From NCBI GenBank assembly GCA_963665845.2, contig OY762492.1, positions 2,208,001 through 2,272,000 of the forward strand: 64,000 bases of DNA. The letters run 5' to 3'. Made by a program: the position numbers and the translations under genes. Below are positions 5,535 to 64,000 of this stretch, piece by piece (position 1 is the first letter of the stretch; the number at the start of each line of letters is the position of its first letter). The DNA is from Candidatus Poribacteria bacterium. GTDB taxonomy: Bacteria > Poribacteria > WGA-4E > GCA-2687025. The notes under the pieces are model-generated. The model did not search any database, was not told the DNA's origin, and saw only the letters and a program-made list of their open reading frames with translations.

Positions 5535-6284
5535 CTACCAGAGTCGCCCTTTGAGGCGGTTGTGTATCATCTCGCAATAGGACGGGTTTATTTCAAAAGC
5601 GTAGCAGCGCCTGCCGTTTAACAGGCATGCTTCAATCGTTGTTCCAGAGCCGGCGAACGGGTCCAATACGGCGCCGTTTTTCGGGCAGCTGGATTTGACC
5701 ATTCGTTCGATGATTTCTAACGGCTTTTGCGTCGGGTGGTCTTCGCGCTCTCTGTGCAGTTTGTGCAACCGAGAGACGCTCCAAACATCTTTCGGGTTAT
5801 GCCCCAGCTCAAGCCATTTGCTCCCGACAAATCTAGATCGGGTTCTCGCTTTTTTCGTTTCCGGATCGTAAGGGATTCTGACCGAATCCAGATCAAAAAA
5901 GTATTTTTTGCTTTTCGCAAAGAAGCCGATGGTGTCATGGACGGATGAAAATTTACGGGTGGAGCCGCCCATGCTTGGAACTCTGCGATCCCAGATAATC
6001 TCATTGACCATGATCATTTTCGTTTTGATAAAGGAGAAAATTTCGGGCGAGTACTTCCAAGTGGTGAAAATATACAGACTGCCGGCGCTTTTCAGTTTGG
6101 GCAGGACTGCCGTTATCCACGCTTTTGTCCATTGAAGAAAGTCGTCGGGATTCATTTTGTCCGACAAATTCCCAAAATCTTTGCCAAGACCGTAAGGCGG
6201 ATCCGCGACGACCAAATCGATGGAATTGTCGGCGATGCGGTCCATTCCAACCAAGACGTCTTCGTTATACAGGTCATATTTCAT
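5535..6284 (-). CDS. Site-specific DNA methyltransferase (N4/N6, beta class), solitary
   Basis: DPPY, HPTQKP, VLDPFAGSGTT. Confidence 0.92.
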   Translation of the reverse strand: MKYDLYNEDVLVGMDRIADNSIDLVVADPPYGLGKDFGNLSDKMNPDDFLQWTKAWITAVLPKLKSAGSLYIFTTWKYSPEIFSFIKTKMIMVNEIIWDRRVPSMGGSTRKFSSVHDTIGFFAKSKKYFFDLDSVRIPYDPETKKARTRSRFVGSKWLELGHNPKDVWSVSRLHKLHREREDHPTQKPLEIIERMVKSSCPKNGAVLDPFAGSGTTIEACLLNGRRCYAFEINPSYCEMIHNRLKGRLW

Positions 6285-28500: not shown

Positions 28501-29766
28501 TTATCCGTTAGGCGGCTGCTGGTTGCCTTTAGCGATAATCTCTTGCCGCCGCTTGATCCATCCCTTGTCGGTCAGCAGTTTGATCAGCTCCTCCTGAGAC
28601 TTGGCGCCTTTATGCGCGTTGCAGGACCCGCACAGCAGCTGCAGGTTGCTGATATGGTCGTTCCCGCCATTCGCGCGCGGGATGATATGATCCACCTGAA
28701 AATGCCGCGGCTCAAAATGCGTCCCGCAAGCGGTACAGTAACCGCCCTGCTCACCGTATAGATAACGGCGGTTCTCGGCGCAGTTGTATTTCGGGATTTT
28801 GCCTAAGTCGGTACGTTTCGGTATGTCGGTTCGATGCGCGCCTCGATACATCAGCCCGACCTCCTCCTGCAGACGCGACTTTACAAGATCCGCCGCCTTC
28901 TCGGAGATGTCGATGCCGACCCATTCCCGCTGGAGCTGTTCAGCGGCGACGCAGGTCGTCGCGCAGCCGCAGAACGGATCCAACACCATGCCGCCCTCGT
29001 TCGATGACGCCTCAATAACGCGGCGCAAGAGAGCCAGCGGCTTCTGCGTCGGATAGCCTGTCCGCTCTTTTTTTAGTCTTGCGACAGGCGTAATGTCGCT
29101 CCACCAGTCCTCTACCACTTTGCCCTCATCGCTCAGGCGCGCCGATTGTTTGAAAATGCCCTGCGTCTTTCCCGTATCCAGCTTCACATAGGGAACGCGA
29201 ACTGCGTTTCTATTGAAGGCGGCGTCGTCGGAATTGGCATAAAATAAAATCACATCATGCTTGCGGGGAAACCATCGGCGCGTGTTAGACGGCCCCGTGT
29301 ATGCCCAGACCACCTCATTTCTAAAATTCGCCTTCCCGAAAACCGAGTCCATCAGCAGTTTCAGATAATGGCTCGCGGTCGGGTCGCAATGGAGGTAGAT
29401 GGAGCCGTCCGGTTTCAGAACCCTGCGCATTTCCATGATGCGGATCGACATGTAGATCAGGTAGCTCTTCATGGAGGCGCCGTGGATGTCGCGCGTCGCG
29501 GTCAGCAGCGCATAGAGGCCTGGGTATTCATGCTTGATTTCGCCGTGCCAGACCAGTTTGACATCGTCCAGCCCCCAGGTGTCTTTGAAGGCGGCGCCCG
29601 CCGCTTTGCTTCCGATGGGAGCGGCGTAGTTCGCCTTGCTGTTGAACGGCGGATCGAGATAAATCAGGTCAACGCTGTCGGAGTTCATGCCGCGCATGAT
29701 GTCCAGGTTGTCGCCTGTCCAGATCGTCTGCGAGGCGAAGTTAGCGGCGCGCGTTTCTTGTTTCAT
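28501..29766 (-). CDS. DNA methyltransferase (beta class) fused to C-terminal HNH endonuclease
   Basis: DPPF, YPTQKP, DPFCGC; C-terminal CTAC..VDHIIP..GG...NLQLLCGSCN. Confidence 0.9.
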   Translation of the reverse strand: MKQETRAANFASQTIWTGDNLDIMRGMNSDSVDLIYLDPPFNSKANYAAPIGSKAAGAAFKDTWGLDDVKLVWHGEIKHEYPGLYALLTATRDIHGASMKSYLIYMSIRIMEMRRVLKPDGSIYLHCDPTASHYLKLLMDSVFGKANFRNEVVWAYTGPSNTRRWFPRKHDVILFYANSDDAAFNRNAVRVPYVKLDTGKTQGIFKQSARLSDEGKVVEDWWSDITPVARLKKERTGYPTQKPLALLRRVIEASSNEGGMVLDPFCGCATTCVAAEQLQREWVGIDISEKAADLVKSRLQEEVGLMYRGAHRTDIPKRTDLGKIPKYNCAENRRYLYGEQGGYCTACGTHFEPRHFQVDHIIPRANGGNDHISNLQLLCGSCNAHKGAKSQEELIKLLTDKGWIKRRQEIIAKGNQQPPNG

Positions 29767-35336: not shown

Positions 35337-37250
35337 ATGAGCGATTCGCGCAACATTGACCTGAACGACATTGTTTTAACGCTTGACGATTTCAAGAACA
35401 GCGGCTGGAAAGACGCCCTGGGTCCGCCTGAGGAGCGGCGCTACTCCAAAATGTATCTCAATCTTAAGACGGCGGCGCGAATCGCTTTTGACAAGGATCA
35501 ACCCGCGCGAGGAAAAGCTCTGCTGCTGCTTTCCAACGCCTGCTCCATGATGCTTGAACCTGAATCCCGCAGCGAGCCTTTCAAGCCGATCTACAAAGAG
35601 TTTCCGTCCGGCAGACGATCACACATTCCCGACGATTTTTTGAAGCAAGATTTGGAGTTCTTTGCGGAGATTGTTGAACATATCGACGATGCGCGGTTAA
35701 AAGCCCGTTTGGCTGACATCCTATGGCTGACGGGCGCCCCCCGCAGAGACCATCAAATGGCTCTGACCGCAATTGACAGATACAGGTCGATTCCGCTGGA
35801 CATCGAAAACTGGCGCGACGACGGAAAGGAATGCTGGCATAGAGCTTTCGCATTGGCTTTCATGCAGAGATCGGGCGCGGGCGATCGCGTTGCCGATATG
35901 GAAAAAGCGATTGTCAGAGCGATTGAGTCTGTAGAATGGCCAAACAGTTTTTTCTGCGTTGAGCTGGCAGATTTTCTCAAGTCCCTCAAGCTTGGAAAAA
36001 ATCATACGCTCAAGATTGCGGAAAAGCTGGAGTCTTTCGTTATCAAAGGCAGCCTGTCAAGCATGATTGCAAACCAGTATTGGACAGCGGCGGAATGGCT
36101 TTTTGCCGCCGGCGAAAATGCAAGGGCTGCAAGCGCGCTTGTCAAAATGGCGGAATGCTATGTTCACGACGGCGACATATACGCGTCGGCGGGGGGGCGG
36201 GGACATGCAGCCGCAACCGATTTTTACCTGCAAGCGATCCATGCGTATGAAAGAATACCGAAAAAAGAGCGCGCAGCGCATCAGGCGGACGACCGAATTG
36301 CCGCGCTCAAGAAGAAGCATGAAAAATCGAGAAACAAGATCGCTGGTCAAATGTCGTCTCTCAAGGTTGATACTCCCGCCAACGATCTCATTGGAATCAT
36401 TGAAGAATCCCGCAAGGCAGTAAGCGGCAAAAGTCCGATAGAAGCGTTGGCGGCGCTTGCGCAATTGCATCAAGTCGCGAATGTCAAGGAATTGCGCGAA
36501 AGCGCTGTCGAGATGATGAAGAAGCATCCAACGCTAACATTCCTCGGAAAAACGCACCTGAGCCGCGATGGGCGCATCCTTGGGCATCAACCTGGAACAA
36601 ACCCGTTTGCGGAAATGTCTGAAGACGCTGTCTGCTTTCAAATGATCGAACAACACATGCTCTCGGTTTCTATTGCGGTTCGCGGCATTTTCATTCCCGC
36701 CCTTGATGTTTTGCATCGAGAGCATCGTTTTAGAAAAGCCGATTTTATTGAACTTGCCAGGCAATCGCCCTTCGCGCCTCCTGGACGCGAAACGCTTTTT
36801 GGAAAAGCGTTGTACGCGGGCTACGACTACGACTTTGCAACGGCGATCCATCTCCTGGCGCCGCAGATCGAAAACATGGTCAGGTTTCATCTGAAGCAGA
36901 GCAGCGCGCAAACGACTCATCTGGACAAGAATGAGAGCATTGAGGACGAGGTCAGCTTGAAGTCGTTAATGGAGCGCCCGGAAGCCGTCCAGATATTCGG
37001 CGGAAATTTGAGTTTTGAGATACGCGCGCTATTCTGCGAACGCGTCGGACCCAACCTGCGAAATCTAGTCGCGCATGGGCTGCTAGACGACGAATCGTCC
37101 CACCAGTCCGTTTACCCTGTTTATGCGTGGTGGTTGTCTCTGCGTCTCATGTTCACATCGTTTCTAGACGCGTTGCTGGACGGGTATGAGGAAGACGAGG
37201 CTCCTCAGGAACTGGACGCTGGGCCGCCTGTTGGGCGCGAGGCGTGGTGA
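35337..37250 (+). CDS. DUF4209-domain protein with HEPN-like RxxxxH motif
   Basis: LAPQIENMVR, GPNLRNLVAHGLL, YAWWL; lower GC than flanking genes. Confidence 0.7.
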   Translation: MSDSRNIDLNDIVLTLDDFKNSGWKDALGPPEERRYSKMYLNLKTAARIAFDKDQPARGKALLLLSNACSMMLEPESRSEPFKPIYKEFPSGRRSHIPDDFLKQDLEFFAEIVEHIDDARLKARLADILWLTGAPRRDHQMALTAIDRYRSIPLDIENWRDDGKECWHRAFALAFMQRSGAGDRVADMEKAIVRAIESVEWPNSFFCVELADFLKSLKLGKNHTLKIAEKLESFVIKGSLSSMIANQYWTAAEWLFAAGENARAASALVKMAECYVHDGDIYASAGGRGHAAATDFYLQAIHAYERIPKKERAAHQADDRIAALKKKHEKSRNKIAGQMSSLKVDTPANDLIGIIEESRKAVSGKSPIEALAALAQLHQVANVKELRESAVEMMKKHPTLTFLGKTHLSRDGRILGHQPGTNPFAEMSEDAVCFQMIEQHMLSVSIAVRGIFIPALDVLHREHRFRKADFIELARQSPFAPPGRETLFGKALYAGYDYDFATAIHLLAPQIENMVRFHLKQSSAQTTHLDKNESIEDEVSLKSLMERPEAVQIFGGNLSFEIRALFCERVGPNLRNLVAHGLLDDESSHQSVYPVYAWWLSLRLMFTSFLDALLDGYEEDEAPQELDAGPPVGREAW

Positions 37251-37597
37251 GACAGGGTCGGTTTGTTCCGCGCCGAGGCGACATCATCATTATTGACTTT
37301 GAGCCGCAGGCAGGCAGGGAGATTAAAAAGCGTCGTCCAGCCGTGGTGTTGTCCCCTGACAATTATAACGCCGGCGGACTTGCGATTGTCTGCCCCATCA
37401 CGAGCGACCCGCAAGGCCGCCAAATCAACCGGCCTTTTAGAGTGGCAATCCCGCCAGGATTAAGAGTACATGGGTTGATCTTGGTTGATCAAGTTAAAAG
37501 CTTGGACTGGAAAATGCGAAACGCGCAGCTTGCGGCTCAACTTCCAACGTCAACCATGCTTCTGGTTCAGCGGGAAATTGCCGCGCTATTAATATAG
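37244..37597 (+). CDS. mazF: PemK/MazF family endoribonuclease toxin
   Basis: PRRGDII.IDFEPQAGREIKKRRPAVVLS, CPITS, DQVKSLDW..R. Confidence 0.9.
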   Translation: MVRQGRFVPRRGDIIIIDFEPQAGREIKKRRPAVVLSPDNYNAGGLAIVCPITSDPQGRQINRPFRVAIPPGLRVHGLILVDQVKSLDWKMRNAQLAAQLPTSTMLLVQREIAALLI

Positions 37598-42924: not shown

Positions 42925-44358
42925 TTAAACAGGAAAGAGCGACGCGCCTCCGCCGCCCGACACAAACCGCGCCAAACCCGACGACGACAACCCAACGGTC
43001 AACGCCAGCGCGAGCGAATCGCCGTAGTCGGGGCTGCGCCCTAGACGCTTCCGCATCTCATCCTTGCTCTCCAGCTTGATCTGACCCTTCGACGAGTAGG
43101 CGTACCGCGCCGCCGTCAGGTCTTCCATCAGCCGCCCATGCCGCGGAACCGCGCCGCCGTTTCGCACCCATTCGCGCATTGTCCACCACATCTCGGCGCG
43201 CTTGTTTAAAAAACGAGCCTTGTCGAGAGCCGAGCTGCCCGCGTTCACCGCCGCGACCGGAACGCCCAACTCCCGCAGCCGATCCACCACGCCCCCGCCG
43301 ACCCCGATGTCGTCCACCGCGATGCGCTGAATTCCCAGATCGCTCTTCAAACGGGCGGCGCGCCCGGCGATTTCCATCGCGCTTCGCCCCCGCTCCTCTT
43401 CTATGCGCTCCACCCGATTTTCCGACGCCAGCGTGTAAACGGTCGCGTCCGATCCGTAGCGCGCCACATCGACGCCCATGCGCAGCGCGCTGTCCGCCTC
43501 CGCCGCTCCCGCCTCATAACGCTCCACCGCCTGCTCAACCCACTCCAGCGATATGAGCTGGTCGCTGGAAAGCTGCGGAAAGTAGCCCATCACTTTCGAC
43601 ATATATTCAGGGGAATCTTCGCCCCATTCGCGCGCCTTCTCCTCCACCCAGACAGGCGCGACGAGGCGCGACTTCAGCTCCTCCGAGACCGCCTCGTTCG
43701 TGAAATTCGGCGAGTCTAGACAGCCCATCCGCAGCACATTCCAAGCGTCCGAACGGCATGCGTCGTAAAAATGCCCCTGCCGTTCGGTCGGATTTCCGAT
43801 CATCAACATATGGGCGTCGCCCGCGCTCATGAGCGAATCGGCGCCCAGATACACCTCCCGCCGGACGCCCGGCGCCTCATCGATGACGACCAGCACATGT
43901 TTTTGGTGAAAGCCTTGAAAACGAACCCGATCCGCCGGCGAGATGCCGAGCGCGAACCAGTCGTCCTGTATCTGCAGGCGCGTTTGAGAGGCGGAGCCTG
44001 GGTAGTCCGCGGGCGCGAGCCTGTCCTTGTAGAGCGCGTTGATCTCGCTCCACAACAGCTGGCGCACCTGCGTCCATGTCGGCGCGGTGGTGATCACCTT
44101 GGAGGGTTGCCGCAGATACAGGAACGCCAGCGACGCCGCCGCCGACACAAACGTTTTGCCGACGCCATGCCCCGCCGGCACCGCCGTTCGGCGGTTTGAA
44201 AACACGGAGCGCAGCACCTCTTTTTGCCGACTCCACAGCTCCAGATTCATCGCCTCCGCCGCCCAGGACGCCGGGTCGTTTAACCATCGTTTGAGATTTT
44301 CGGGACCCGATCCTTTGCGTCCGGCATCGAAACATTTCAGATTCAGCTCCGTTGTCAT
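42925..44358 (-). CDS. terL: Phage terminase large subunit
   Basis: Walker A GHGVGKT, Walker B VVIDEA, IGNP coupling motif, nuclease GVDVARYGSD and RSPDYGDSL; strong AAGGAGGAGG RBS. Confidence 0.9.
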   Translation of the reverse strand: MTTELNLKCFDAGRKGSGPENLKRWLNDPASWAAEAMNLELWSRQKEVLRSVFSNRRTAVPAGHGVGKTFVSAAASLAFLYLRQPSKVITTAPTWTQVRQLLWSEINALYKDRLAPADYPGSASQTRLQIQDDWFALGISPADRVRFQGFHQKHVLVVIDEAPGVRREVYLGADSLMSAGDAHMLMIGNPTERQGHFYDACRSDAWNVLRMGCLDSPNFTNEAVSEELKSRLVAPVWVEEKAREWGEDSPEYMSKVMGYFPQLSSDQLISLEWVEQAVERYEAGAAEADSALRMGVDVARYGSDATVYTLASENRVERIEEERGRSAMEIAGRAARLKSDLGIQRIAVDDIGVGGGVVDRLRELGVPVAAVNAGSSALDKARFLNKRAEMWWTMREWVRNGGAVPRHGRLMEDLTAARYAYSSKGQIKLESKDEMRKRLGRSPDYGDSLALALTVGLSSSGLARFVSGGGGASLFPV

Positions 44359-44735
44359 TCGCCTCCTCCTTCGAACGACCTGATCAGCGCATTCATCGTT
44401 TTAATGAATTAACGAAGCCGGACGCCCGCTCCGCATTTCACCGCTCCATCTGCGCGGGGCTTTCTGGACTCCCCTTGAAAAAGGGGCAGGAGGGTTTTCT
44501 GGACTCCCCCTTGAAAAGGGGGGCTGGGGGGGTTTTCCGCGGGCGCGGACGTTGTCGGGTTCGCCTCTGGATTCCCGCTTACGCGGGAATGACGGTTTGG
44601 TTCGACAGCCGTCGCGCAAAATGAATATCATCGCCTGTAGAGACTGCCTCGCCGGCAGCATGCTTGCATTTTAAATTCGCTTATCGTATCATGAGAGCGG
44701 CGGAATCATCCGTCCGCAACTGAGGGAGTTACGCC

Positions 44736-45035
44736 ATGAACGACGACGTCAGATCGGAACTGTACGCGCTGATCCAAAAACTTGACGCCTACATTGCGCG
44801 GGAAGAACGCCTCGAAAATGCTATTGAGGCGAACAGAAACGCCATTGAGGTGAACAGAAACGCCATTGCGGAAAACAGAAAAGCCATTGAGAAAAACAGA
44901 GACGCCATTGAGCAGAATGGAAGGGCTATCGCGCGGCTCGAGGGAAAAATCGCCGGCAGCATTATCATCATCGGGCTAGCGGCAGGTCTACTGGGACCAC
45001 TGGTCATGGTGATCGTGAATCTGGTCAGCAAATAA
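44736..45035 (+). CDS. Small coiled-coil protein with 7-aa repeats and C-terminal TM
   Basis: NAIEANR/NAIEVNR/NAIAENR/KAIEKNR/DAIEQNG heptads encoded by 21-nt repeats; GGGAG RBS. Confidence 0.75.
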   Translation: MNDDVRSELYALIQKLDAYIAREERLENAIEANRNAIEVNRNAIAENRKAIEKNRDAIEQNGRAIARLEGKIAGSIIIIGLAAGLLGPLVMVIVNLVSK

Positions 45036-45117: not shown

Positions 45118-47991
45118 TTAGACGGCGAAGGGCGCGTCGGGGCGGGGCTTGCCGCCATGGACAGACGGCTCCGCCGCCCACTTCGCCGACAGCTCCCGCA
45201 CAGCGGCATGGGCAGACTCGTCGAAGCCAAGCAGCTCGCATAAGACAGCGCGGTCCAGATCGGCGCGCGTCTGGTCAAGGTCAGCGATATACGCCGGCTT
45301 GAAATCGCGCTCTCGGAAGCGGTTGAATATCTCCTCGGCGAGCGACAGCTGATCGTCCGATAAGACGCGCAGGTCTAGCGTCGGGAGCAATTCAAGCGCG
45401 CGGATCGTAATGCGTCCGCGCCCCCTATGCTGACGGCTGGATCGCCACCAGTGCATGATCAGACCAAGAGTACTGTTGCCCCATAATGTAAACGCGAAAT
45501 CAAGACGATTGTTTTCGAAACGAATGCTTTTCCATGCGCTTCCGCCCATCGCTATTCGCTCTGTAAATGCGACAGATAACGGCTGTGAGTTGTATTGAAA
45601 ATCCTCATTGTGGTGGCATCGGCTAGCGGTTGCCGCTTTTTTCCTTGCCTGCTTTTCCATGCCTTGCCGCGCATGCAGTTGCGAGTCAGGTTCGCAGATG
45701 ATTTTCGTTTCTTTCTTGGCGTCATGGCTATAAAGCGAAGGGTATGTCGCCGTCGGGCTGGGGCGGCCTCTAGTAAAAGGGCCTCTAGGCGGAGGATCCG
45801 TTAAATCGCGGTGCGGGAGTCCTCGACTGCCGATTTGCTTAAGCGGAACCATCGGAATTTCAATCGGATCAAGGAGGCCTGGCAGCCATAGAGTAGAATT
45901 CGTTAGCGCATAAGCGGCTTGCGCTACGGAATAATCCACAATGCGCGAAAGCTCCCAAGCGCCGCCGTCAGCGCGAATAGGCGCGGTCAGCATTTCCCCT
46001 TCTCGATCTTCTCCGACCAATGCCGGCGCGCCGCCGTACGGGCCGTCTTCCAGACGCCGAACAGAGTCTGCAAATGCAATGCGCCTTCCGAGCTCTGACG
46101 CATGCGCAAAATTCTGCGGGCGTCGTCTTAGAGAGGTGAAGCGCGCGGCGTTTGAATGCAATTCATGATGCGGCGCTTTTTTGCGCGCCACGATCAAGCA
46201 TTCCGCCATGCCGGTATCCGCCGAAAAAGATGCGTCGTTCGTATGCGCCGAGGCGATGCTCAGAATGTCAATATCAACATAATTGCTTGCCAGCATTGCC
46301 CGCATTTTTTTCCATGATTGACCAGAAACGGCGCTCAACGGCAAAACGAGAGCCATGACCCCGCCCGGCTTCAGTTTGATATCGCCCAGCGCCGCGAACG
46401 CCGAGGCGATGCCCGCATTTCTAAAATAGCAGGTGTCGCTCTTGAACCTGTTCATCCGATCCCACATCTCCTTTTGCTCTTCAGCGGATGCTTCGAAGGC
46501 GGCAAAGGTTCCTGTTCGGGTGAACGGCGGGTTCATGATGACAAGGTCGAACGACTCATCCTTCATCTCAACGTTGATGCGGGTTGCTGTTTCTTCGCCG
46601 TGTCTGCCGGTACGTTTGCCTGGGTCGGTCGTGTTGAAAAGCGTATCGACGCTGCTGTTCGTCAGCAGTTCCAGCGAACCGAGTCTGACCGTATTGTCCG
46701 CTTGTCTGCCGTATGGCACCGTATAGACGCGCGAGTCGCCGTAGTCGATTTCAGGTCTGGCGCCGGAGAGCGTCGCGCTCGTGATATGGACGGCGGACGG
46801 CATGACGTCCGCGCCATGCAGAACCTTCTCCATCATGACAGGGTGGAGGTTGTTGAGCGTTCCGCCCGCGCGTTCGTGCAGCGCGGCGATTCGATCATAG
46901 ACGGCGGAGAGCAGCGCGCCTGTTCCGCATGCGAAGTCGGCGATCTTGAGCCGTTCTATCGATTCGCGGAATTTCCATTCGACGCCGCGCAGTTTACTGA
47001 CGGCAAGCCTTGCAAGCAGGGCGGCGGAATAGGGGCGGGTGTAGAAGGTGGCGAGGTATTTGCGGTCGGAGATCAGCCGTTGAAAAACGCGCCCCGTCAG
47101 CTCATGCGCGTTCGTGATATGCTCGCCCTGCGCCGCATACCGCAGCTCCTTCAGTACGCTGGCGGCGAGTCCAGCAGGCATTTGAGTCAGAATGTCTTGC
47201 GCGATGGCGAAGATCGGGTAGTAATTGATCTTGAGTATCTCGTCCCACGCTTCCAGCGTGTCCAGTTTTATGCTTTGCGTATCGTTTCGGCATATCGCTG
47301 TGAACGGCGTTATTTTGGGATGCATGCCGGCGATGCGTTCGTGGAAGGCAAGGGCGTTTGCGATGATGGCGCATGCCATTCGGCGCGTTTGCGGGACGTT
47401 CGACATGCCGAGCAGCCGCGCGGTTTCTTTGGAGATTTCGGGTCGCGTTTGGGCGTCTTCGTCCATGACGAGAGCCGCTGTCTCAATGCCGCTTTCCAAC
47501 GCTTCGGCGGCTCTGTCCACCTCCTTTTGCGGAACGGAGATCATGCGCACCAGATCGGACAGATCCTCCGCTGTCCCTTCCAGCCATCCGGTTTCGGGAA
47601 AGCGTATCGGCTCCTCCATTGACCCGCGCGCGTCTTCTTGAAAGAAGCAATACTTGAGAATTGCCTGATTTATCTCCGCCTTGAGGTCGTCCGCCGTTTC
47701 CAGCGTTTCTGGATAGATCAGCGCGACAACGGCTTCCACCGGGCGCGTTTGCCCTTCCAGTTTGGCGCCGAGCCGCTGCTTCGCTTCCTTTTCCACATCC
47801 CGGGCGGGTTCGTATTCCGCCTCGATGATGACGGGGGAGCGTCCGCTGGCGGCAATGAATATGTCAGGTCTCCGCGCTTTTGCCTCGCGCAGTACGTCGG
47901 TGTTTTCTGCCTTGATGCCGCTCTTGGGCGCCATCTCCTGCAGGATGTCGGCGAGAACGTAGTTCAGGCTGGTTTCTATGTGGCGCGCCAT
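45118..47991 (-). CDS. Type IIG-like restriction-modification enzyme (nuclease-MTase-TRD fusion)
   Basis: N-terminal RPDI...IIEAE; FYT, DFACGTG, NPPF; long C-terminal TRD-like region. Confidence 0.82.
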   Translation of the reverse strand: MARHIETSLNYVLADILQEMAPKSGIKAENTDVLREAKARRPDIFIAASGRSPVIIEAEYEPARDVEKEAKQRLGAKLEGQTRPVEAVVALIYPETLETADDLKAEINQAILKYCFFQEDARGSMEEPIRFPETGWLEGTAEDLSDLVRMISVPQKEVDRAAEALESGIETAALVMDEDAQTRPEISKETARLLGMSNVPQTRRMACAIIANALAFHERIAGMHPKITPFTAICRNDTQSIKLDTLEAWDEILKINYYPIFAIAQDILTQMPAGLAASVLKELRYAAQGEHITNAHELTGRVFQRLISDRKYLATFYTRPYSAALLARLAVSKLRGVEWKFRESIERLKIADFACGTGALLSAVYDRIAALHERAGGTLNNLHPVMMEKVLHGADVMPSAVHITSATLSGARPEIDYGDSRVYTVPYGRQADNTVRLGSLELLTNSSVDTLFNTTDPGKRTGRHGEETATRINVEMKDESFDLVIMNPPFTRTGTFAAFEASAEEQKEMWDRMNRFKSDTCYFRNAGIASAFAALGDIKLKPGGVMALVLPLSAVSGQSWKKMRAMLASNYVDIDILSIASAHTNDASFSADTGMAECLIVARKKAPHHELHSNAARFTSLRRRPQNFAHASELGRRIAFADSVRRLEDGPYGGAPALVGEDREGEMLTAPIRADGGAWELSRIVDYSVAQAAYALTNSTLWLPGLLDPIEIPMVPLKQIGSRGLPHRDLTDPPPRGPFTRGRPSPTATYPSLYSHDAKKETKIICEPDSQLHARQGMEKQARKKAATASRCHHNEDFQYNSQPLSVAFTERIAMGGSAWKSIRFENNRLDFAFTLWGNSTLGLIMHWWRSSRQHRGRGRITIRALELLPTLDLRVLSDDQLSLAEEIFNRFRERDFKPAYIADLDQTRADLDRAVLCELLGFDESAHAAVRELSAKWAAEPSVHGGKPRPDAPFAV

Positions 47992-55987: not shown

Positions 55988-56065
55988 TGGCGAACCCGAC
56001 GAGATTTGAACTCGCGACCTCTGGCTTGACAGGCCAGCGTTCTAACCAGACTGAACTACGGGTTC
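55988..56065 (-). tRNA. tRNA-Asp(GTC)
   Basis: Cloverleaf GAACCCG...CTGGCCT-GTC-AAGCCAG...GTTCAAAT...CGGGTTCG-CCA. Confidence 0.95.
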
Positions 56066-56084
56066 GCAATTCAAGCATCGGCGA

Positions 56085-56160
56085 TGGTGAGCGGAACAGG
56101 ACTTGAACCTGCGACCTGCGGCTTGTAAGGCCGCCGCTCTCCCAGCTGAGCTATCCGCTC
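56085..56160 (-). tRNA. tRNA-Val(TAC)
   Basis: GAGCGGA TAGCTCAG...GCGGCCT-TAC-AAGCCGC...GGTTCAAGTCC...TCCGCTCA-CCA. Confidence 0.95.
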
Positions 56161-56219: not shown

Positions 56220-56353
56220 GTGAAATTTGCCTTTTGGGGTGAAAAAATTGGGCAAACCGCTCATTTCGCGCAAAAGAACGCCCCATGAGGCTGATTCTGG
56301 GGAAGGATGCGCGGGCGCGCGCGGCGTCTGCGGCGCCTAAGATTCCCGCTTAC

Positions 56354-56470
56354 GCGGGAATGACGCGGAGAGAGGGGGCGGGAATGACGCGGAGAGAGGG
56401 GGCGGGAATGACGCGGAGAGAGGGGGCGGGAATGACGCGGAGAGAGGGGGCGGGAATGACGCGGAGAGGG
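56354..56470. repeat. 24-bp tandem repeat x~5
   Basis: GCGGGAATGACGCGGAGAGAGGGG repeated. Confidence 0.9.
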
Positions 56471-56498
56471 ATGCGCGGGCGCGCGGGCATGGACGATC

Positions 56499-57881
56499 TC
56501 AAAACAGGGCGATGGTTGGATCCAGCTCCTTGCCCGTGTACGGGTTCAGCATCTGCGGAAGGCTGGGGAGGCGGCGTTCAAAATAGTCTTGGATTGACCA
56601 GAGCTGCAGCCGTTCATACTCGGTTCCTAAGACGGCGATCTTGCCTTTTTCGCGCGCTTCGGCTCTTGCGGCGCGCGTCTCTACAGGATCCAACGTGATG
56701 TAATAGCCGAGAGCCGCCTGGTCGCGTTCCATGACGCCGCTGAAATCGCGCAGATGCGACAGGCTGAACCGCCCGCCCTTCACCTGCGCCAGCGCGAGGC
56801 GCGACTCGGCGCCGTCGGGAGCATGCGCCAACGCCGCCCTGCCGTCCACGCCGCCGTCGCCTGTCTGCTTCATATTTGGGGCAAATCCAGGCAGGCGCAT
56901 CACCGCCCAGGATTCAAAATCGAACGGCTTCTCGCGCGCCGACTTACGCGCCGACGCCATGTCCCGCGGTATTCCCTTCGCCGGTATGTTTTCGTTTTTA
57001 AACCGCTCCTTGCGTATCAGGTCGATCGCAAAGGAGCTGATGTCGATGCCCGCCCATCGGCGGTTGAGGCGTCGGGCGGCGTCGATGGATGTGCTGCATC
57101 CGCAGAACGGGTCTAAGACGATGTCGCCTTCGTTGGAGGACGCCTTGATGATGCGTTCCAGCAGTTTCAACGGCTTTTGAGTCGGGTAACCCGTATGCTC
57201 GCTTGCCCACGGCATGATCGAGTTGAGAACGATCACATCGTCCGGCAGTTTGCCTTTCTCATAATTTCTTTCCGATCCGTCCGCCCGCCGCTGTCCTTTT
57301 GTCCATTTGTATGGAACGCGGACATCGTCCACATTGAATGTCCAGCGGTTCGATTTTGTATAAAAAAAGATCGTGTCGTGCTTGCGCGCAAACCGCTTTT
57401 TAGACGCTCCGCCGCCGCTGTAGTGCCAGACCAGCTCGTTTTGAAAATGCCCCTTCCCAAAGACAGCGTCCATAACGATTTTGAGATAATGGCTGGCGGT
57501 CGGGTCGCAGTGGAGATAGAGCGAGCCTGTCGGTTTCAGCAGGCGGCGCATCTCGATCAGCCTCTCCGCCATGTAGGTTAGATACGCCAGCATACCGCTT
57601 TTGCCGAGTATCTGCCGCAAGCCGACGATCGTATCGCGGGCGGGTCGCGCTAAGGCGTTTTCAAACGCTTCATAACGTTCGACCGCCGCGTCGTCCCAGT
57701 GCCATGTGTCGTTGAAGGCGCGGTATTGCGCCTTGCCGCCGGCAGGTTCGTCGGCGAAGAGGACATTGTATTTGGCGGCGCTGTTGAACGGCGGGTCGAG
57801 ATAAATCAGGTCGACGCATTCGGCGTCCCACTGGCGCATCCAGTCTAGGCAGTCGCCGTAGTAGAGATGGTTCGGCTGCAT
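56499..57881 (-). CDS. DNA methyltransferase (beta class) fused to C-terminal Mrr-like nuclease domain
   Basis: DPPF, YPTQKP, DPFCGC; C-terminal FDFESWAV...GDGGVDG...LAQVKGG. Confidence 0.88.
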   Translation of the reverse strand: MQPNHLYYGDCLDWMRQWDAECVDLIYLDPPFNSAAKYNVLFADEPAGGKAQYRAFNDTWHWDDAAVERYEAFENALARPARDTIVGLRQILGKSGMLAYLTYMAERLIEMRRLLKPTGSLYLHCDPTASHYLKIVMDAVFGKGHFQNELVWHYSGGGASKKRFARKHDTIFFYTKSNRWTFNVDDVRVPYKWTKGQRRADGSERNYEKGKLPDDVIVLNSIMPWASEHTGYPTQKPLKLLERIIKASSNEGDIVLDPFCGCSTSIDAARRLNRRWAGIDISSFAIDLIRKERFKNENIPAKGIPRDMASARKSAREKPFDFESWAVMRLPGFAPNMKQTGDGGVDGRAALAHAPDGAESRLALAQVKGGRFSLSHLRDFSGVMERDQAALGYYITLDPVETRAARAEAREKGKIAVLGTEYERLQLWSIQDYFERRLPSLPQMLNPYTGKELDPTIALF

Positions 57882-57960
57882 TGCTGTTTCCCCTAGAAAG
57901 AGGCTGCCGTCGCTTTAACATGAGACAAATGCGCGGCGTTGTCAAGGACGCAGGCGGTTC

Positions 57961-58870
57961 TAGACTCCCCCCTTGAAAAGGGGGGCTGGGGGGTTTTCAG
58001 CGGGCGGGTTGCGCTTGGTTTTGAACTAGGATGGAAGGATTAGTAAGATTGCCAAGATAGGGCTTACAGGCATTCTTTTGGCAATCTTTTCAATCTTGGC
58101 AATCCTAGTTCAGACAACGAGGGATGGCGCCGGCGGATAGATAGCGGTTTTGACGAATGCGAACGGTTCTTGCCGGGACTCTGGATTCCCGCTTGCGCGG
58201 GAATGACGGCGTGTGGAGACGACGCGAATGGCGGATGCGGGCGGTTTTGGCGGCTCTGACTAGACTCCCCCTTGAAAAGGGGGGCAGGGGGGGTTTTCAG
58301 CGGGCGGGTTGCGCTTGGTTTTGAACTAGGATGGAAGGATTAGTAAGATTGCCAAGATAGGGGCTTACAGGCATTCTTTTGGCAATCTTTTCAATCTTGG
58401 CAATCCTAGTTCAGACAACGAGGGATGGCGCCGGCGGATAGATGGCGGTTTTGACGAATGCGAACGGTTCTTGCCGGGACTCTGGATTCCCGCTTGCGCG
58501 GGAATGACGGCGTGTGGAGACGACGCGAATGGCGGATGCGGGCGGTTTTGGCGGCTCTGACTAGACTCCCCCTTGAAAAGGGGGGCAGGGGGGGTTTTCA
58601 GCGGGCGGGTTGCGCTTGGTTTTGAACTAGGATGGAAGGATTAGTAAGATTGCCAAGATAGGGGCTTACAGGCATTCTTTTGGCAATCTTTTCAATCTTG
58701 GCAATCCTAGTTCAGACAACGAGGGATGGCGCCGGCGGATAGATGGCGGTTTTGACGAATGCGAACGGTTCTTGCCGGGACTCTGGATTCCCGCTTGCGC
58801 GGGAATGACTCCCGGCGGCGCGGGAGCTGCTAGACTCCCCCCTTGAAAAGGGGGGCAGGGGGGGTTTCCG
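57961..58870. repeat. ~300-bp tandem repeat x3 built from three palindromic repeat families
   Basis: Units start at 57961, 58261 and 58562; each has CCCCCTTGAAAAGGGGG, the family-3 hairpin and ATTCCC-N8-GGGAAT. Confidence 0.92.
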
Positions 58871-59041
58871 CGGGGGCGAACAGCTCCCGCGGCGCCTAAG
58901 ATTCCCGCTTGCGCGGGAATGGCCCCCGTTTTCACGGGGGCAGGCTATGGGGGCGCGCCTGCCTACATAAAAATTATCCACAATTTGTCAACTGCTGCGT
59001 TAAGAGAGGCGACTCTGCCTCTTAACCGCGACGCCGCCAAC

Positions 59042-60343
59042 ATGGAGAACCTATTGCCGATGCGCCTATCGTTCACCGACTTTAAACGGCTCTTCAAATG
59101 GAAACGAAAAAACCCGTCTGAACCGACGCTGCGCGAACTGGGCGCGTCCGGCACCGCGCTTTTCAGCGGCAATCTATGGGAAGAACTGCTGCCTGAATTG
59201 AGCGGACCGGCGCGCATGGAGGTTTATGAACGCATGCGCGCCGACGCGCAGGTTGCCGCCGTCCTGAACGTCATTGAGCTGCCGATACGCGCCGCCGATT
59301 TTACCGTTGAGCCTGCTGACGCCGGCGCGTCCGCCCGCGAAACCGCCGAATTCATCGACGACGCCCTCCGCTGTATGGACGACTCCTTCGACGATTTCCT
59401 GCGCCAATCGCTGCTGATGCTCGCTTACGGGTTCATGCTGTTTGAGAAGGTGTATGAGGTCCGCCCGGACGGGCGCATCGGGTGGGTCAAGTTTGCCCCG
59501 CGCCTGCCGCGCACCGTCGTACGCTGGGCTCATGACGGCGCGGGTCGGCTGTCGGGCGTTGAGCAGCGCGTCATCGGCGACGCGGCGCGCCATGTCGTCA
59601 TCCCCGTTGAGAAGCTGATGCGGTTCACCTACCGCCAAGAGGGGGACAATTACGAAGGGCGCCCTCTGCTCAAAGATGTGTATAAACACTGGCGGCACAA
59701 GGACACATTATACAGGTTTGCGGCGATTGCGGCGGAGCGCGCCGGGGTCGGCGTTCCGATCATCACCGTGCCGCCTGGGACGCCGCAGTCGGATCTGAAC
59801 GCGGCGTTTCAGATTGTGGAGGCGTTTCGCGCGGGCGAAAAGACCGGCATTGTGCTGCCGAACGATTACACGTTTGCGCTGTCGGCGACGCGCGGATTTC
59901 CGCATATGAACCTGATTGAACATCACAACGGCATGATCGCCAAGGCGGCTCTCGCGCAGTTTTTGAATCTCGGTCAGGCAAATGTGGGCAGTTTTGCGCT
60001 GTCCGCCTCGCAGACCGACCTGTTTTTGATGGCTCTGAACGGCTTGCTGCAGCATCTGTGCGCCGTCATCAATCGGCAGGCTGTACAGGAGCTGTCGCGC
60101 TGGAACTTCGGCGGGAACGCGCCGGTTCCGCGCATCCGCGCCAAGCTGCGCAACTACGACACGCGCCAGCTTGCGGAGACGCTGGATATGTTGACGCGCG
60201 GCGAGCTGCTGACGCCGGACGAGTCGGTTGAGGCGTTCATACGCGAAACGCTTGACCTGCCTTCCAAACGCGCATCGAAACGCGCCAACCATGAACAGAA
60301 AGGAGAAACGATGCATGACAATCGAAAAGGAGAACGTCTATGA
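59042..60343 (+). CDS. Phage portal protein (DUF935/Mu gp29-like)
   Basis: ELGASG, YERMRADAQVAAVL, YGFMLFEKVY, GRPLLK.VYKHW, ERAGVGVP, GSFALS. Confidence 0.85.
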   Translation: MENLLPMRLSFTDFKRLFKWKRKNPSEPTLRELGASGTALFSGNLWEELLPELSGPARMEVYERMRADAQVAAVLNVIELPIRAADFTVEPADAGASARETAEFIDDALRCMDDSFDDFLRQSLLMLAYGFMLFEKVYEVRPDGRIGWVKFAPRLPRTVVRWAHDGAGRLSGVEQRVIGDAARHVVIPVEKLMRFTYRQEGDNYEGRPLLKDVYKHWRHKDTLYRFAAIAAERAGVGVPIITVPPGTPQSDLNAAFQIVEAFRAGEKTGIVLPNDYTFALSATRGFPHMNLIEHHNGMIAKAALAQFLNLGQANVGSFALSASQTDLFLMALNGLLQHLCAVINRQAVQELSRWNFGGNAPVPRIRAKLRNYDTRQLAETLDMLTRGELLTPDESVEAFIRETLDLPSKRASKRANHEQKGETMHDNRKGERL

Positions 60344-61275
60344 ACAAAACGCCTGCCAAACGGTTTTTCGCCTCTCTCGCGCTGAATGAGCGCGTCGGCG
60401 GGGAGTCGCCGAAATGGGTCTCTAGCGTTCAGCTGCTGCGCAAAGGCGTGTTTCAGCACGCTTGGCACGGATCGCTTGAGATCGATGAAGATTTGTTTGC
60501 CTCGCTGATACGCAACTTCGACGCGGACGCGCGCGGCATCGACATCGCGCTGGATGTGGAGCATATGCCGGATCTGGGCGCCGCGGGATGGTTCCGCCGT
60601 CTGTTTGCGGACAACTCGGAGAGCGAGCTGTGGGGCGATGTGGAATGGACGCCTGCCGGACGAAAGCTGGTGGAGGAGGGCGCGTTCAAGTACCTCTCCA
60701 TCGAATACGATCTGGACTACGCGGACGAGGAGGGCGGCAAACATGGTCCGACGATGCTGGGCGCGGCGTTGACAAACCGCCCGTTCATCAAGCGCATGCG
60801 CGCCGCTTCGTTCCGTTTTGCCGAGCCGAGCAGCGACCCTGGGATGATTCTGTTGACGGAGCAGGAGCGGCGTCTCCACAGCGAGCTGGCGCGGCTGGAC
60901 GCCGAGAAGGCGCGGCTGGAAACGGAGCTGCGCAAGGCGTCGGTGGAGCGGGTTCTCTCGGAAGGCAAGCGGAGGGGGCGCGTCTCTCCCGCGATGGAGA
61001 GCTGGCTGGAGGAGCTGGCGGAAAAAGAGGGGGTTGAACGTCTGCGCGCCGTTCTGGAGACGCTTCCTGAACAGATCGACTTTTCGGAGATTGGTTCGCC
61101 CGGCGGCGCGCAGTCGACAAGCGCGGCGGACGCTCTCCATGAAGCGGTGAACGCGGAGATGCGCCGCATGCGCGAGGAAAACCCGGACGCGAACCCGTCC
61201 TATGCGGACGCGCTGGCGGCGGTGGAATCTCGGCAGCCGGGGCTTGTGGAGGCGTATAAGGCGCAGCGGCGGTGA
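60340..61275 (+). CDS. Mu-like prohead protease/scaffold (gpI family)
   Basis: LDVEH..AAGW, VEWTPAG, FKYLS, GAALTNRPF; C-terminal coiled coil with GRVSPA. Confidence 0.88.
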   Translation: MNKTPAKRFFASLALNERVGGESPKWVSSVQLLRKGVFQHAWHGSLEIDEDLFASLIRNFDADARGIDIALDVEHMPDLGAAGWFRRLFADNSESELWGDVEWTPAGRKLVEEGAFKYLSIEYDLDYADEEGGKHGPTMLGAALTNRPFIKRMRAASFRFAEPSSDPGMILLTEQERRLHSELARLDAEKARLETELRKASVERVLSEGKRRGRVSPAMESWLEELAEKEGVERLRAVLETLPEQIDFSEIGSPGGAQSTSAADALHEAVNAEMRRMREENPDANPSYADALAAVESRQPGLVEAYKAQRR

Positions 61276-61327
61276 GCGGCGCGCTGTTTTCTTAAACAAA
61301 AACGCCATGCAAACGAAAGGAGAGGTC

Positions 61328-61723
61328 ATGGCGACTCAACAGCTGGTGACAGGAAACGAGGTCAGTTACGGGGCTTCCGCCGACTTGAGCGGCAAGCCGT
61401 TTCGTTATGTGAAACTGGCGTCGATATCGGGTCAGGTCGCGCTGTGCGGCGCGGCGGACATACCGGTCGGCGTCTTGCAGAATCGCCCCCGTTCGGGGGA
61501 CGCCGCGGCGGTCATCACGCTTTCAGGCGCGGTGGCGAAGGCGGTCTCGGACGGGTCGCAGAGCGCCATCGCCATCGGCGACACGGTCGGCTCCGACGCG
61601 AACGGAAAGGCGGTCAAAAAGACGGTCGCCGGGAGCTGGTACAACGGCGTCGCCCTGGAAACGTCCAGCCAGGACGGCAAGGTGATTCGCATTCAGCTGA
61701 CCGGTCCGCAGCAGCGGTCTTAA
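61328..61723 (+). CDS. Capsid cement/decoration protein (DUF2190-like)
   Basis: ASADL, GVLQNRP, IAIGD.VGSDANGKAV, GVALE; located between protease and capsid genes. Confidence 0.75.
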   Translation: MATQQLVTGNEVSYGASADLSGKPFRYVKLASISGQVALCGAADIPVGVLQNRPRSGDAAAVITLSGAVAKAVSDGSQSAIAIGDTVGSDANGKAVKKTVAGSWYNGVALETSSQDGKVIRIQLTGPQQRS

Positions 61724-61759
61724 CACTGATCAGGGCGATGAAAACGAAAGGAGACGCCC

Positions 61760-62698
61760 ATGCCGTTCCCGAGCGCGCGCGACGTCCATCAGGACAGCGT
61801 GCTGACAAATCTCTCGGTTCAATACCGCAACGAAGAATACATTGCCGCGCAGTGCGTTCCGAAGGTCCTGGTGCGGAAAGCGTCCGACAAGTACTACGAG
61901 TTCGATCAGGGCGACTGGTTCCGCGACGAAGCGGGCGAACGCGCCGCCGCGACCACCGGCCCGGTCGGCGGATACAGCCTCTCGACGCGCAGCTACGACA
62001 CGAAGCAGTACTCGATGGCGACCTATGTCGCGGACGAGGAGCGGGACAACGCGGACGCGGGTCTCGACCTGGACCGGCAAGCCATCGAATACTGCGCCGA
62101 CAAGGTTCAGCTGCGGTTTGAAACGCAGGCGGCGGGTCTGCTTTTCAAGGTGGGCAGTTACCCGACGGGGCATAAAAAGACGCTCAGCGGAACCGCCCAG
62201 TGGAGCGACGCCGCCTCGACGCCGATAGCGGACATCCGGGCGGCGAAGTCGCAGGTCGGCGGGGCCATCGGGCGTCAGCCCAACACGCTCATTCTGGGCG
62301 AGCAGACCTATCTTCAGCTCCAGGACCATCCGGACGTCTTGGACAGGGTGAAGTACACGCAGAGCGGGGCGGTGACGCCTGATCTGCTGGCGGGCTTGTT
62401 CGATGTGAAGCGCGTTCTTGTCGGGCGGGCTGTTCAGAACACGGCGGCGGAAGGGCTGGAGCCGTCCTACGCGCGCGTCTGGGGCAAGCACGCGGCGCTG
62501 ATCTACACGGCTCCGACGCCGGGTCTGCGCACGCTTTCGTTCGCTTACTGGTTCGTCTGGCGCGGTTACGATTTCACGGCGGAGCGCTGGCGGAAGTCGG
62601 ACGGGGGCGCCTCGGACGGTTTTCGGGTTCGCGCGCAGTGGGATTCGAAGATCGCGGCGAAGACGGCGGGTTATTTCATCGAGAACGCTGTCGCTTGA
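61760..62698 (+). CDS. Major capsid protein
   Basis: LTNLSVQYRN..YIA..VPKV.V, WSD..STPIADI, GRQPNTLILG..Y..L..HP, AGYFIENAVA; position in head operon. Confidence 0.85.
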   Translation: MPFPSARDVHQDSVLTNLSVQYRNEEYIAAQCVPKVLVRKASDKYYEFDQGDWFRDEAGERAAATTGPVGGYSLSTRSYDTKQYSMATYVADEERDNADAGLDLDRQAIEYCADKVQLRFETQAAGLLFKVGSYPTGHKKTLSGTAQWSDAASTPIADIRAAKSQVGGAIGRQPNTLILGEQTYLQLQDHPDVLDRVKYTQSGAVTPDLLAGLFDVKRVLVGRAVQNTAAEGLEPSYARVWGKHAALIYTAPTPGLRTLSFAYWFVWRGYDFTAERWRKSDGGASDGFRVRAQWDSKIAAKTAGYFIENAVA

Positions 62699-62752
62699 CA
62701 GCTTCCGTTCCTTCATGAGTCGGATGAGTCGGCCGGCGGTTCTGCCGCCTCT

Positions 62753-62997
62753 GTCATTCCCGTGAAAACGGGAATCTTAAGGCATCGCAGCCGCCGGCCT
62801 TTTAAAAAAAGAAAGGGCGGTACGCTCATGCGGGATTTTCATTGTCGTCATTCCCGCGTAAGCGGGAATCTTAGCATCGTAGTTGCCGCGCTCGTCTTTT
62901 AAACCCCCTAGCCCCCCTTTTCAAGGGGGGAATCGGATGGGCGCCCTTTTTCAAGGGGAATCGGATGGGCGCCCTTTTTCAAGGGGAATCGGATGAG
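62753..62997. repeat. Host REP-like palindromes inside the phage head operon
   Basis: Two ATTCCC-N8-GGGAAT copies, CCCCCCTTTTCAAGGGGGG and a ~29-bp tandem repeat. Confidence 0.85.
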
Positions 62998-63046
62998 TCG
63001 GTCGGCGGTTCTGCCGCCGGCTTTTTAAAAGAAAGGAGAAACGCGC

Positions 63047-63451
63047 ATGGCGTATTCCAACGTCTCCGACATTCAAAAGCTGTTCGCAAACATCGTCTTT
63101 GACGCTTCCTCGCCTGTGACCAGCTCCGACATCGAATCGAAGCATATACCGAAAGCGGACGCCTATATCGACGCGCGGCTGCGCAGCCGGTATGAGACGC
63201 CGATTTCAGCGGATGGCGACCTGGAATTGATGCGGCTCATCAGTTCGAATCTCGCGGCGGGTTTCGTCGCCGAGGTGTTGTATGAAACGTCGCAGCAGCC
63301 GAACGATCAGGCGTCTGCGCGTCAACGGCGCGGCTTTGCCGAGGAGCTGCTTGATCAGATCATGGAGGGAACGGCGGTTCTTGAAACGCCGAGAAAGCCG
63401 ATCGCCGGCATTGTCGGCGCGGGTTCGTCCTTGGCGGGGGAGGATGCTTGA
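63047..63451 (+). CDS. Head-tail connector (Mu gp36/DUF1320-like)
   Basis: MAYSNVSDI, ADAYIDARLRSRYETPI, AEELLDQIMEG. Confidence 0.75.
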   Translation: MAYSNVSDIQKLFANIVFDASSPVTSSDIESKHIPKADAYIDARLRSRYETPISADGDLELMRLISSNLAAGFVAEVLYETSQQPNDQASARQRRGFAEELLDQIMEGTAVLETPRKPIAGIVGAGSSLAGEDA

Positions 63452-63970
63452 ATGGCGTATGTCGTTCTTTCCGAAAAGCAAGCGGCGGCGTCCGAACATA
63501 CGTTGGAGGGGTTGAAGCGGCTGAAAGCGGTTCTGGACGCGAACGCGGCGGTACTGAAGTCGGGCGGGCGCTCGGCTGTGTCGACAACCGTCTTTACGGG
63601 CGCGCAGCATGCTATCGGGCGGTTTCCAGCGATACAGGCGGAAGCCGCTGAAGCGTACGAGGAGCCGACAGGGATGCGCTGGGGGGCGGTCAGCCTGCTG
63701 TATATGCGCTTTCGGCTCTTTGCGTTCGATATTGCGCTGGGGCGTCCGTCGGCTCTGGCGGAGAACCTGGCGCAGTTCAGCGACCGCATTCAGGCGGTGT
63801 TGCGGAAAAACAGGACGCTGGACGGGTTCTGCCGAAATGTGCATATCGATAAGGTGGTGCATGGGCGTCTTCGCGGCGGACCGCGCAGTTCGAATCCGGT
63901 GTTTGCGTCGCATCCGATCTTGGCGGCGCAGATCGATGCGACCGTTGAAAAAGCGATTGAGCGCGATTAA
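63452..63970 (+). CDS. Putative phage neck/tail-completion protein
   Basis: Abuts the gp36-like gene; FPAI and VLRKNRTLDG motifs. Confidence 0.5.
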   Translation: MAYVVLSEKQAAASEHTLEGLKRLKAVLDANAAVLKSGGRSAVSTTVFTGAQHAIGRFPAIQAEAAEAYEEPTGMRWGAVSLLYMRFRLFAFDIALGRPSALAENLAQFSDRIQAVLRKNRTLDGFCRNVHIDKVVHGRLRGGPRSSNPVFASHPILAAQIDATVEKAIERD

Positions 63971-63994
63971 ACAAAACAAGAGGAAGGAGAGCCG

Positions 63995-64000
63995 ATGACG
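63995..64000 (+). CDS. Start of the next gene of the phage-like operon (truncated by window edge)
   Basis: GGAAGGAG RBS followed by ATGACG. Confidence 0.45.

Follow-up and report, generated by a model that had tools for sequence, protein, structure and literature searches.

A phage head module held as host genes in Candidatus Poribacteria, with a possible gene transfer agent-like role

The stretch of DNA analysed here, called the window, comprises 64,000 nucleotides of a Candidatus Poribacteria genome (GenBank assembly GCA_963665845.2, contig OY762492.1, positions 2,208,001 to 2,272,000). It ends in an operon of phage-type head genes and carries, apart from them, a gene for a large terminase (terL). 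Together these genes almost certainly represent a domesticated phage head system, now consisting of fixed host genes. The genome under study (G000, a 3.98-Mb assembly) was compared with that of a sister species of its genus (G001), and the ratios of nonsynonymous to synonymous substitution rates (dN/dS) given below were calculated from this one species pair by the Nei-Gojobori method, with codon bootstrap for the confidence intervals (CI). The window sits on contig C1 (3.95 Mb) of G000, and window coordinates are used unless G000:C1 is stated. The genes of the module are:

42925-44358, minus strand: terL, large terminase, 477 amino acids (aa); phrog_2, E 6e-40; dN/dS 0.11
59042-60343, plus strand: portal, 433 aa; PF06074, E 2e-51; phrog_113; dN/dS 0.09
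60340-61275, plus strand: gpI-type prohead protease with scaffold-like C-terminus, 311 aa; PF10123; phrog_328 and phrog_976; dN/dS 0.17
61328-61723, plus strand: cement/decoration protein, 131 aa; PF09956; phrog_673; dN/dS 0.32
61760-62698, plus strand: major capsid protein, 312 aa; phrog_1005, E 1e-92; PF03864; PDB 3bjq, E 8e-29; dN/dS 0.09
63047-63451, plus strand: gp36-like head-tail adaptor, 134 aa; PF07030, E 9e-5 (narrowly missing the Pfam cut-off); phrog_195; dN/dS 0.19
63452-63970, plus strand: putative neck protein, 172 aa; weak match to phrog_8346, a family of unknown function; dN/dS 0.05
63995-64465, plus strand (first 6 bases in the window; G000:C1:2271995-2272465): tail-tube-like gene, 156 aa; phrog_1407, E 1e-6; dN/dS 0.45 (CI 0.24-0.85)
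64503-64781 (G000:C1:2272503-2272781): 92-aa coiled coil with hydrophobic C-terminus, possible holin; phrog_5225, E 8e-8; dN/dS 0.15

All of these reading frames are open, and their Pfam and PHROG matches bear out the intact portal, protease/scaffold, decoration, capsid, gp36-like and neck genes proposed in the original prediction, which had been made from the letters of the window; for the neck gene the only such match is the weak one to phrog_8346. The ribosome-binding sites and host-like base composition noted there were also found. The sequence AAGGAG precedes six of the eight operon genes, all but the portal and the 172-aa gene, as against 319 of 2739 genes (about 12%) called genome-wide with a crude gene caller. 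The GC content of the operon genes is 0.59-0.65, and the hexamer scores of seven of them (0.29-0.50; the cement gene was missed by the caller) lie around the genome median of 0.37. The codon use of the module is host-like. Palindromic REP-like elements, very abundant and with a very high contig depth, fill intergenic gaps including that between the capsid and adaptor genes (62760-63000), as well as 44500-44640 and others elsewhere.

The neck protein is 51-57% identical to its counterparts in G002 and G003, which belong to other genera of the family, and its position makes it a candidate tail terminator or head closer. It had no match in PDB, Pfam or cultured phages, its Atlas matches were all unnamed, and its profile, compared with two annotated terminators, one stopper and two positional equivalents, gave a probability below 1% in each case. 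An AlphaFold model of this protein (mean pLDDT 41) was set aside. The 92-aa gene closes the operon and is also the last gene of the cluster in G002 and G003; the look-alikes of its product in the Atlas are small phage proteins, XhlA-, DUF2951- and DUF7201-like. Small coiled-coil proteins with short internal repeats are encoded at 44736-45035 (without Pfam match) and, beyond the window, at 67082-67549 and 73390-73761; two of the three have a C-terminal hydrophobic segment, a build that resembles that of the 92-aa protein.

The operon had been expected to continue past the window, and it does, but only for 781 bp, which hold the tube-like and 92-aa genes; serA, on the opposite strand, and further host genes follow. 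On the upstream side lie a methyltransferase gene, tRNA-Val, tRNA-Asp and serS.

55988-56160, minus strand: tRNA-Asp and tRNA-Val; host flank, 5' side toward the module

No piece of these tRNAs is repeated at the far end of the module in the manner of a phage attachment site (att), and the only two tyrosine recombinases of G000 lie 0.4 and 0.7 Mb away. As had been claimed, a Pfam scan of 62 open reading frames (ORFs) of the window, taken from a list of 133 of at least 120 aa containing many shadow frames, found no family of integrases, transposases, repressors or replication proteins; the search for transposases covered the window ORFs only. No HNH gene was found in the operon and no inducer or regulator gene beside it. 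Since the downstream DNA carries neither integrase nor att, the ordinary prophage that the original prediction had left open is very unlikely; replication and regulation genes and strain-specific presence, which also characterise prophages, were likewise not seen. Between tRNA-Val and the portal gene there is an insertion (56285-58900), absent from G001, that contains a DNA methyltransferase/Mrr-like gene (56499-57881), 2.8 copies of a 301-bp unit at 99% identity (57960-58809) and a 24-bp repeat.

The terL gene has no other module gene beside it and lies upstream of genes for a GFO-oxidoreductase and a comF-like protein. The distance of about 15 kb originally reported between terL and the operon is correct for G000 (14.7 kb), but it is not conserved, being at least about 62 kb in G001; in G002 and G004 terL lies directly 5' of the portal gene. 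The motifs GHGVGKT, VVIDEA, GVDVARYG and DSLALAL are conserved, and inspection of the alignment showed the Walker A/B and nuclease motifs to be intact. Since the ATPase and nuclease motifs are kept and the dN/dS is 0.11 although the gene stands alone, DNA packaging appears to be the selected trait. In a search of 16 genomes terL was detected in three, G001, G002 and G004; that of G003 may be unassembled, since the portal contig of G003 starts inside the gene preceding the portal.

Several candidates related to terL were discarded. A link to competence is unsupported, as the neighbours of the comF-like gene differ in each genus examined. A second, weak phrog_2 match at C1:1352441 corresponds to a 733-aa helicase-like gene, presumably RecD2, and not to a terminase. 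The motif GCTKCGTTAA, common to the upstream regions of terL and portal, occurs 10 times in the genome, as against about 15 times expected by chance (estimated with even base use). No SOS-like palindrome common to both upstream regions was found, and no sigma-70 promoter in the operon region, where 1.2 were expected. Elsewhere, at G000:C1:2862647-2863450, there is a gene for a 267-aa protein like the ATPase half of TerL (29% identity), with Walker B changed from DE to DN, for which G001-G007 gave no orthologue. A gene that we take to be comEC-like, the scanned fragment of which had no Pfam match, is 1.3 kb away.

The nine module genes, pooled, have a dS of 0.252 and a dN/dS of 0.139 (CI 0.11-0.17; 2218 codons), while eleven host genes from stretches of G001 have a dS of 0.250 and a dN/dS of 0.221 (CI 0.20-0.25; 4555 codons). 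The module is therefore under stronger purifying selection than the compared host genes. The lowest values correspond to the neck protein (0.05), capsid and portal (0.09 each) and terL (0.11), whereas the tube gene is relaxed (0.45); the CI lies below 1 for all nine. These results largely refute the notion of a decaying prophage remnant without present function, which we regard as highly improbable. The stepwise loss of genes in the family, the relaxed tube gene, the absence of the module from one genus (g5, see below) and the adjacent tRNA genes would suit a remnant, but every CI lies below 1, the pooled value is below that of the host genes over a dS of 0.25, the frames are intact, neither att duplicate nor integrase is found nearby, and codon use is host-like.

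A profile of the portal gave a single strong match in each of G000-G004, five of the eight genomes of the family, belonging to four genera, and none in the 168 genomes of other families (176 genomes searched). The capsid protein matched five of 61 genomes, G000-G003 and G007 (31%). In G007, where the portal profile gave two weak matches, the portal and capsid matches belong to a different phage-like region, outside the capsid clade of the module, and were rejected. The assembly of G004 is fragmented, and its module contig stops in the cement gene. G001 has the same module layout as G000. Contigs X5 (about 95% alike) and X14 (about 92%), which come from sponge metagenomes of two other studies, span the region from portal to the 92-aa gene; X14 runs on into serA, and contigs of other studies also join terL to its GFO neighbour. 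Because contigs of two other studies show the same junctions, the layout is not an assembly artefact. Close relatives of the cluster are present in sponge metagenomes, and two Ca. Poribacteria records carry capsids 95% and 71% identical to that of G000. Sequences L025 and L037 seem to represent a single sequence that the counts already include, and they were not added again.

Between G000 and the other genera, identities are 70-73% for the capsid, 60-64% for terL and 58-62% for the portal, as compared with 68-72% for ppdK, 63-67% for GroEL-b and 57-65% for serS. Across genera the module diverges at host-like rates, and it has apparently been inherited vertically in the family. The vertical and uniform distribution that had been proposed as a check was only partly seen: the module is single-copy in five of the eight family genomes, but three genomes lack it. 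The domestication put forward in the original prediction stands, with a single copy, host-like dS, purifying selection, presence in four genera and no downstream integrase or att.

With regard to ancestry, the Mu-like origin first suggested holds for the family names of the portal, protease and gp36 but not for the capsid and terL, which match other phages best and are not of Mu type. Mu-like transposable phages have a Mu-type capsid, gpF/gpG and a transposase. The module has neither gpF nor PF05069, and no transposase was found among the window ORFs; PF04233 (gpF), whose lack between portal and protease the original prediction had noted, was found in none of the five genomes searched. The nearest cultured relatives of the capsid are ~60-kb Arthrobacter and Roseobacter RDJL phages, and those of terL are mixed phages, at no more than 38% identity in both cases. 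The capsids of the family form one short-branched clade (support 0.97), and among the best 40 of the 150 library representatives that were compared, the nearest non-family capsid is 49% identical. Judging from the gene content of related clusters, the ancestor would have had the tube, chaperone-like and Dit-like genes of a long-tailed phage.

Such fuller clusters occur in two other genera. That of G002 occupies ~14.5 kb between ppdK and host genes, without integrase. It comprises genes for terL, portal, protease, cement and capsid, then fibre-like and small genes and those for adaptor and neck, and further the tube gene in three paralogues, a pair of chaperone-like genes, a gene of low complexity where a tape measure would be expected, a Dit-like and a hub-like gene, and the 92-aa gene. 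In G002 and G003 the names Dit, hub, tape measure and fibre are our assumption from position and resemblance, family matches being weak or absent; the tape-measure-like gene, assigned by position only, is short (266-407 aa). The frameshift in the G002 capsid is probably an assembly error and not a real break, because a split is also seen in ppdK of that contig. The tail block of G002 recurs in G003, where host genes border it and an M15 peptidase gene lies 5' of the portal. An IMG/VR contig (L024) has the same M15 peptidase and, before terL, a terS-like frame (small terminase); its capsid gene is followed (L024:7545-8600) by what is presumably a glycosyltransferase-like gene and a small 92-aa-like gene. 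The three tandem tube paralogues with the short tape-measure-like gene (L010:12788-14527; L009:3667-5470) could correspond to a short tail with differing rings.

When 24 proteins of G002 and G003 were compared with G000 by tblastn, terL, portal, protease, cement, adaptor, neck, one tube and the 92-aa protein were found. The tube gene is present in one copy in G000 and G001 and in three in G002 and G003. The genus of G000 has lost the tail-tip genes and two of the three tube genes, and has split off terL. The spacer between the tube and 92-aa genes is equal in length and nearly equal in sequence in G000 and G001; since both species share this junction, the loss of the tail predates their split, and selection acted on the tail-less form.

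The gene content leans somewhat towards heads that would be released without tails, filled with host DNA, in the manner of a gene transfer agent (GTA); an origin from a GTA is most likely. The portal, protease/scaffold, capsid and cement proteins would assemble a prohead, and TerL would cut chromosomal DNA and pump it in; as neither terS nor other phage DNA was found, it would probably show little preference for sequence. Sealing of the head would fall to the adaptor and the 172-aa neck protein, possibly together with a stub of tube, and the 92-aa protein may aid release from a few lysing cells. The heads would probably not inject DNA by themselves, and the DNA could reach kin through competence uptake or an externally supplied tail. 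A more specific version, a host-owned tail-less GTA delivered by the tails of phages infecting neighbours or by competence uptake, is a tentative proposal and rather doubtful.

Several results weigh against released, DNA-filled heads of this kind. In the above tblastn search no fibre-, chaperone-, tape-measure-, Dit- or hub-like gene was found in G000, apart from one 40-residue match at chance level (E 0.025), and Dit and hub were not found in G001 either. As the tail tip has been lost, a point missed by the original prediction, ordinary GTA-type injection is doubtful; of the GTA-like reading made there, the domestication part is supported. G003 and L024 have an M15 endolysin for which no counterpart was found in G000, G001, G002 or G004, which leaves release with only a holin-like gene. 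As predicted, terS was not found: searches with the L024 terS-like frame and with PF03592 were each negative in five genomes, and RcGTA, the Rhodobacter capsulatus GTA, requires terS (PMC6854486, in the part of the paper available). The selection estimates come from a single species pair. The three genomes of genus g5 (79-92% complete) have no module, although both GroEL trees place g5 beside the genus of G000; gene order is not conserved in g5. Finally, the module tree agrees with the ppdK host tree and not with that of GroEL-b, the host trees being poorly resolved.

It could also be the case that this is a split GTA of the ordinary kind and that its tail genes, located at another place in the genome, have diverged beyond detection or were not assembled. 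Split loci are normal among GTAs, some Faecalibacterium strains show operon I of FpGTA without detected operon II (PMC12946183, from the accessible text), and here marker-gene completeness is 90% and the tail searches were made with proteins of related clusters and with single Pfam families. On the other hand, the hub proteins of G002 and G003 match each other at E 2e-67 and the two Dit proteins share 33% identity, but neither hub nor Dit was found in G000 or G001; PF06605 was absent from eight genomes, and PF05069 (a neck protein) and PF04865 (baseplate J) from G000 and G001. Moreover, C1 is a single 3.95-Mb contig, C2 and C3 being only 97% copies of parts of it, and both species lack the same genes. 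We consider this explanation quite unlikely. PF10145 was not found either, but its absence is uninformative on tail loss because it was also undetected in G002 and G003, and the same goes for PF06605.

Two further alternatives were weighed. The heads might serve without transfer, as sealed DNA-filled shells acting as a DNA or phosphorus store, biofilm material, signal or cargo in sponge tissue. The delivery parts are lost and the sealed-head parts kept, close relatives live in sponge metagenomes, and HK97-fold shells have plausibly been domesticated before, as encapsulins (PMC8987985, as far as its accessible text goes); but the tube and holin-like genes are still under selection and nothing indicates a particular cargo, which leaves such a role little chance. 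An anti-phage device is similarly unlikely: head proteins and TerL would poison or divert phage assembly, and the DNA of the phage would end up trapped in heads without tails, a dead end. That the tail tip and endolysin are lost while portal, capsid, neck and terL are strongly selected fits packaging without infection, and methyltransferase and toxin-antitoxin genes are numerous in the window. However, there is no adjacent inducer or regulator and no terL-portal upstream motif above chance, and co-assembly with current phages is less likely with a capsid at most 49% identical to any compared non-family capsid.

Returning to the GTA-like heads, the module differs in its PF06074 portal, gpI protease and phrog_1005 capsid from what we take to be the RcGTA families. 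It also belongs to another phylum, no terS was found in it, and the genus of G000 has no tail tip. It resembles RcGTA-type systems as described in PMC9662315 (cited, like the other sources in this paragraph, from the part of its text that was accessible) in being a phage-derived head-tail cluster (~14.5 kb in G002) without replication or integration genes, in its split loci, its host-like slow evolution and its short tape-measure-like gene (by position). The same source defines GTA viriforms by caudoviricete-derived proteins, caudovirion-like particles, encapsidation of mostly random host DNA, full endogenisation, often at several loci, a genome that cannot be fully packaged, vertical inheritance with co-diversification, and delivery to cells. 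Caudoviricete-derived structural proteins were found here by Pfam and PHROG (portal, protease, capsid, adaptor, tube and terL), as was full endogenisation, with serS/tRNA and serA flanks, a separate terL and no nearby integrase or att. Co-diversification is mixed: within the genus dS equals that of the host and synteny is kept, while across genera the rates are host-like but tree agreement is mixed and g5 is a gap. At best, then, the module would act in the manner of a GTA, and it is not classed as one. The nearest split system outside Alphaproteobacteria is FpGTA of Faecalibacterium (PMC12946183), also a two-locus GTA-like system. Its particles have no identifiable tails, and some strains have the head operon only; nevertheless, FpGTA is podovirus-like and has a terS candidate, whereas the ancestor of the module would have been long-tailed, and the producing strain has a second operon (baseplate, fibre, holin, endolysin), of which none was found for the module.

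Phage-inducible chromosomal islands that form capsids (cf-PICIs; bioRxiv 10.1101/2025.02.11.637232, from its available text) likewise encode a capsid, portal, protease, terminase and neck of their own but no complete tail module, and their tail-less capsids take phage tails. They are, however, mobile islands of 10-18 kb that package themselves and carry an integrase, a replication module, terS and HNH. No such mobility genes lie near the module, which is fixed, lies split over two loci and has retained one tube gene: neither integrase nor replication module is adjacent, and terS and HNH are missing from a packaging set in which capsid, protease, portal, adaptor and terL are present. Whereas cf-PICIs have no lytic genes, the module, with its incomplete tail and no M15 endolysin, retains a holin-like gene.

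To our knowledge, few GTA lineages have been described. We found no GTA-like cluster described in Poribacteria, in agreement with the earlier suggestion of a possibly undescribed system, although most subscription journals and supplements lay outside the search and the gene tables of Poribacteria genome papers could mention the genes. Predicted Poribacteria phages have been reported (PMC8245591, in the text available), and the words 'phage' and 'capsid' are absent from the main text of a study of Poribacteria imaging and transcripts (PMC5087111). If released tail-less heads are real, living genomes would show a path from L024, G003 and G002, with terS-like, endolysin and tail genes among them, to G000 and G001, with head, neck and one tube ring. 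Retention of the head module after loss of the tail tip, with selection stronger than on the compared host genes, suggests that DNA packaging can benefit the host without injection, which bears on the open question of why hosts maintain GTA genes. Such clusters are at risk of being entered among prophages or viral contigs, and IMG/VR catalogues two close relatives.

The window also contains five genes of methyltransferase or restriction-modification type in 64 kb (402-1856, 5535-6284, 28501-29766, 45118-47991 and 56499-57881), together with a Fic gene (25574-26689) and a MazF-like gene (37244-37597). Outside the window, at G000:C1:2106884-2107678, ARAGORN reported a pair of tmRNA genes that overlap, and it labelled one as permuted.

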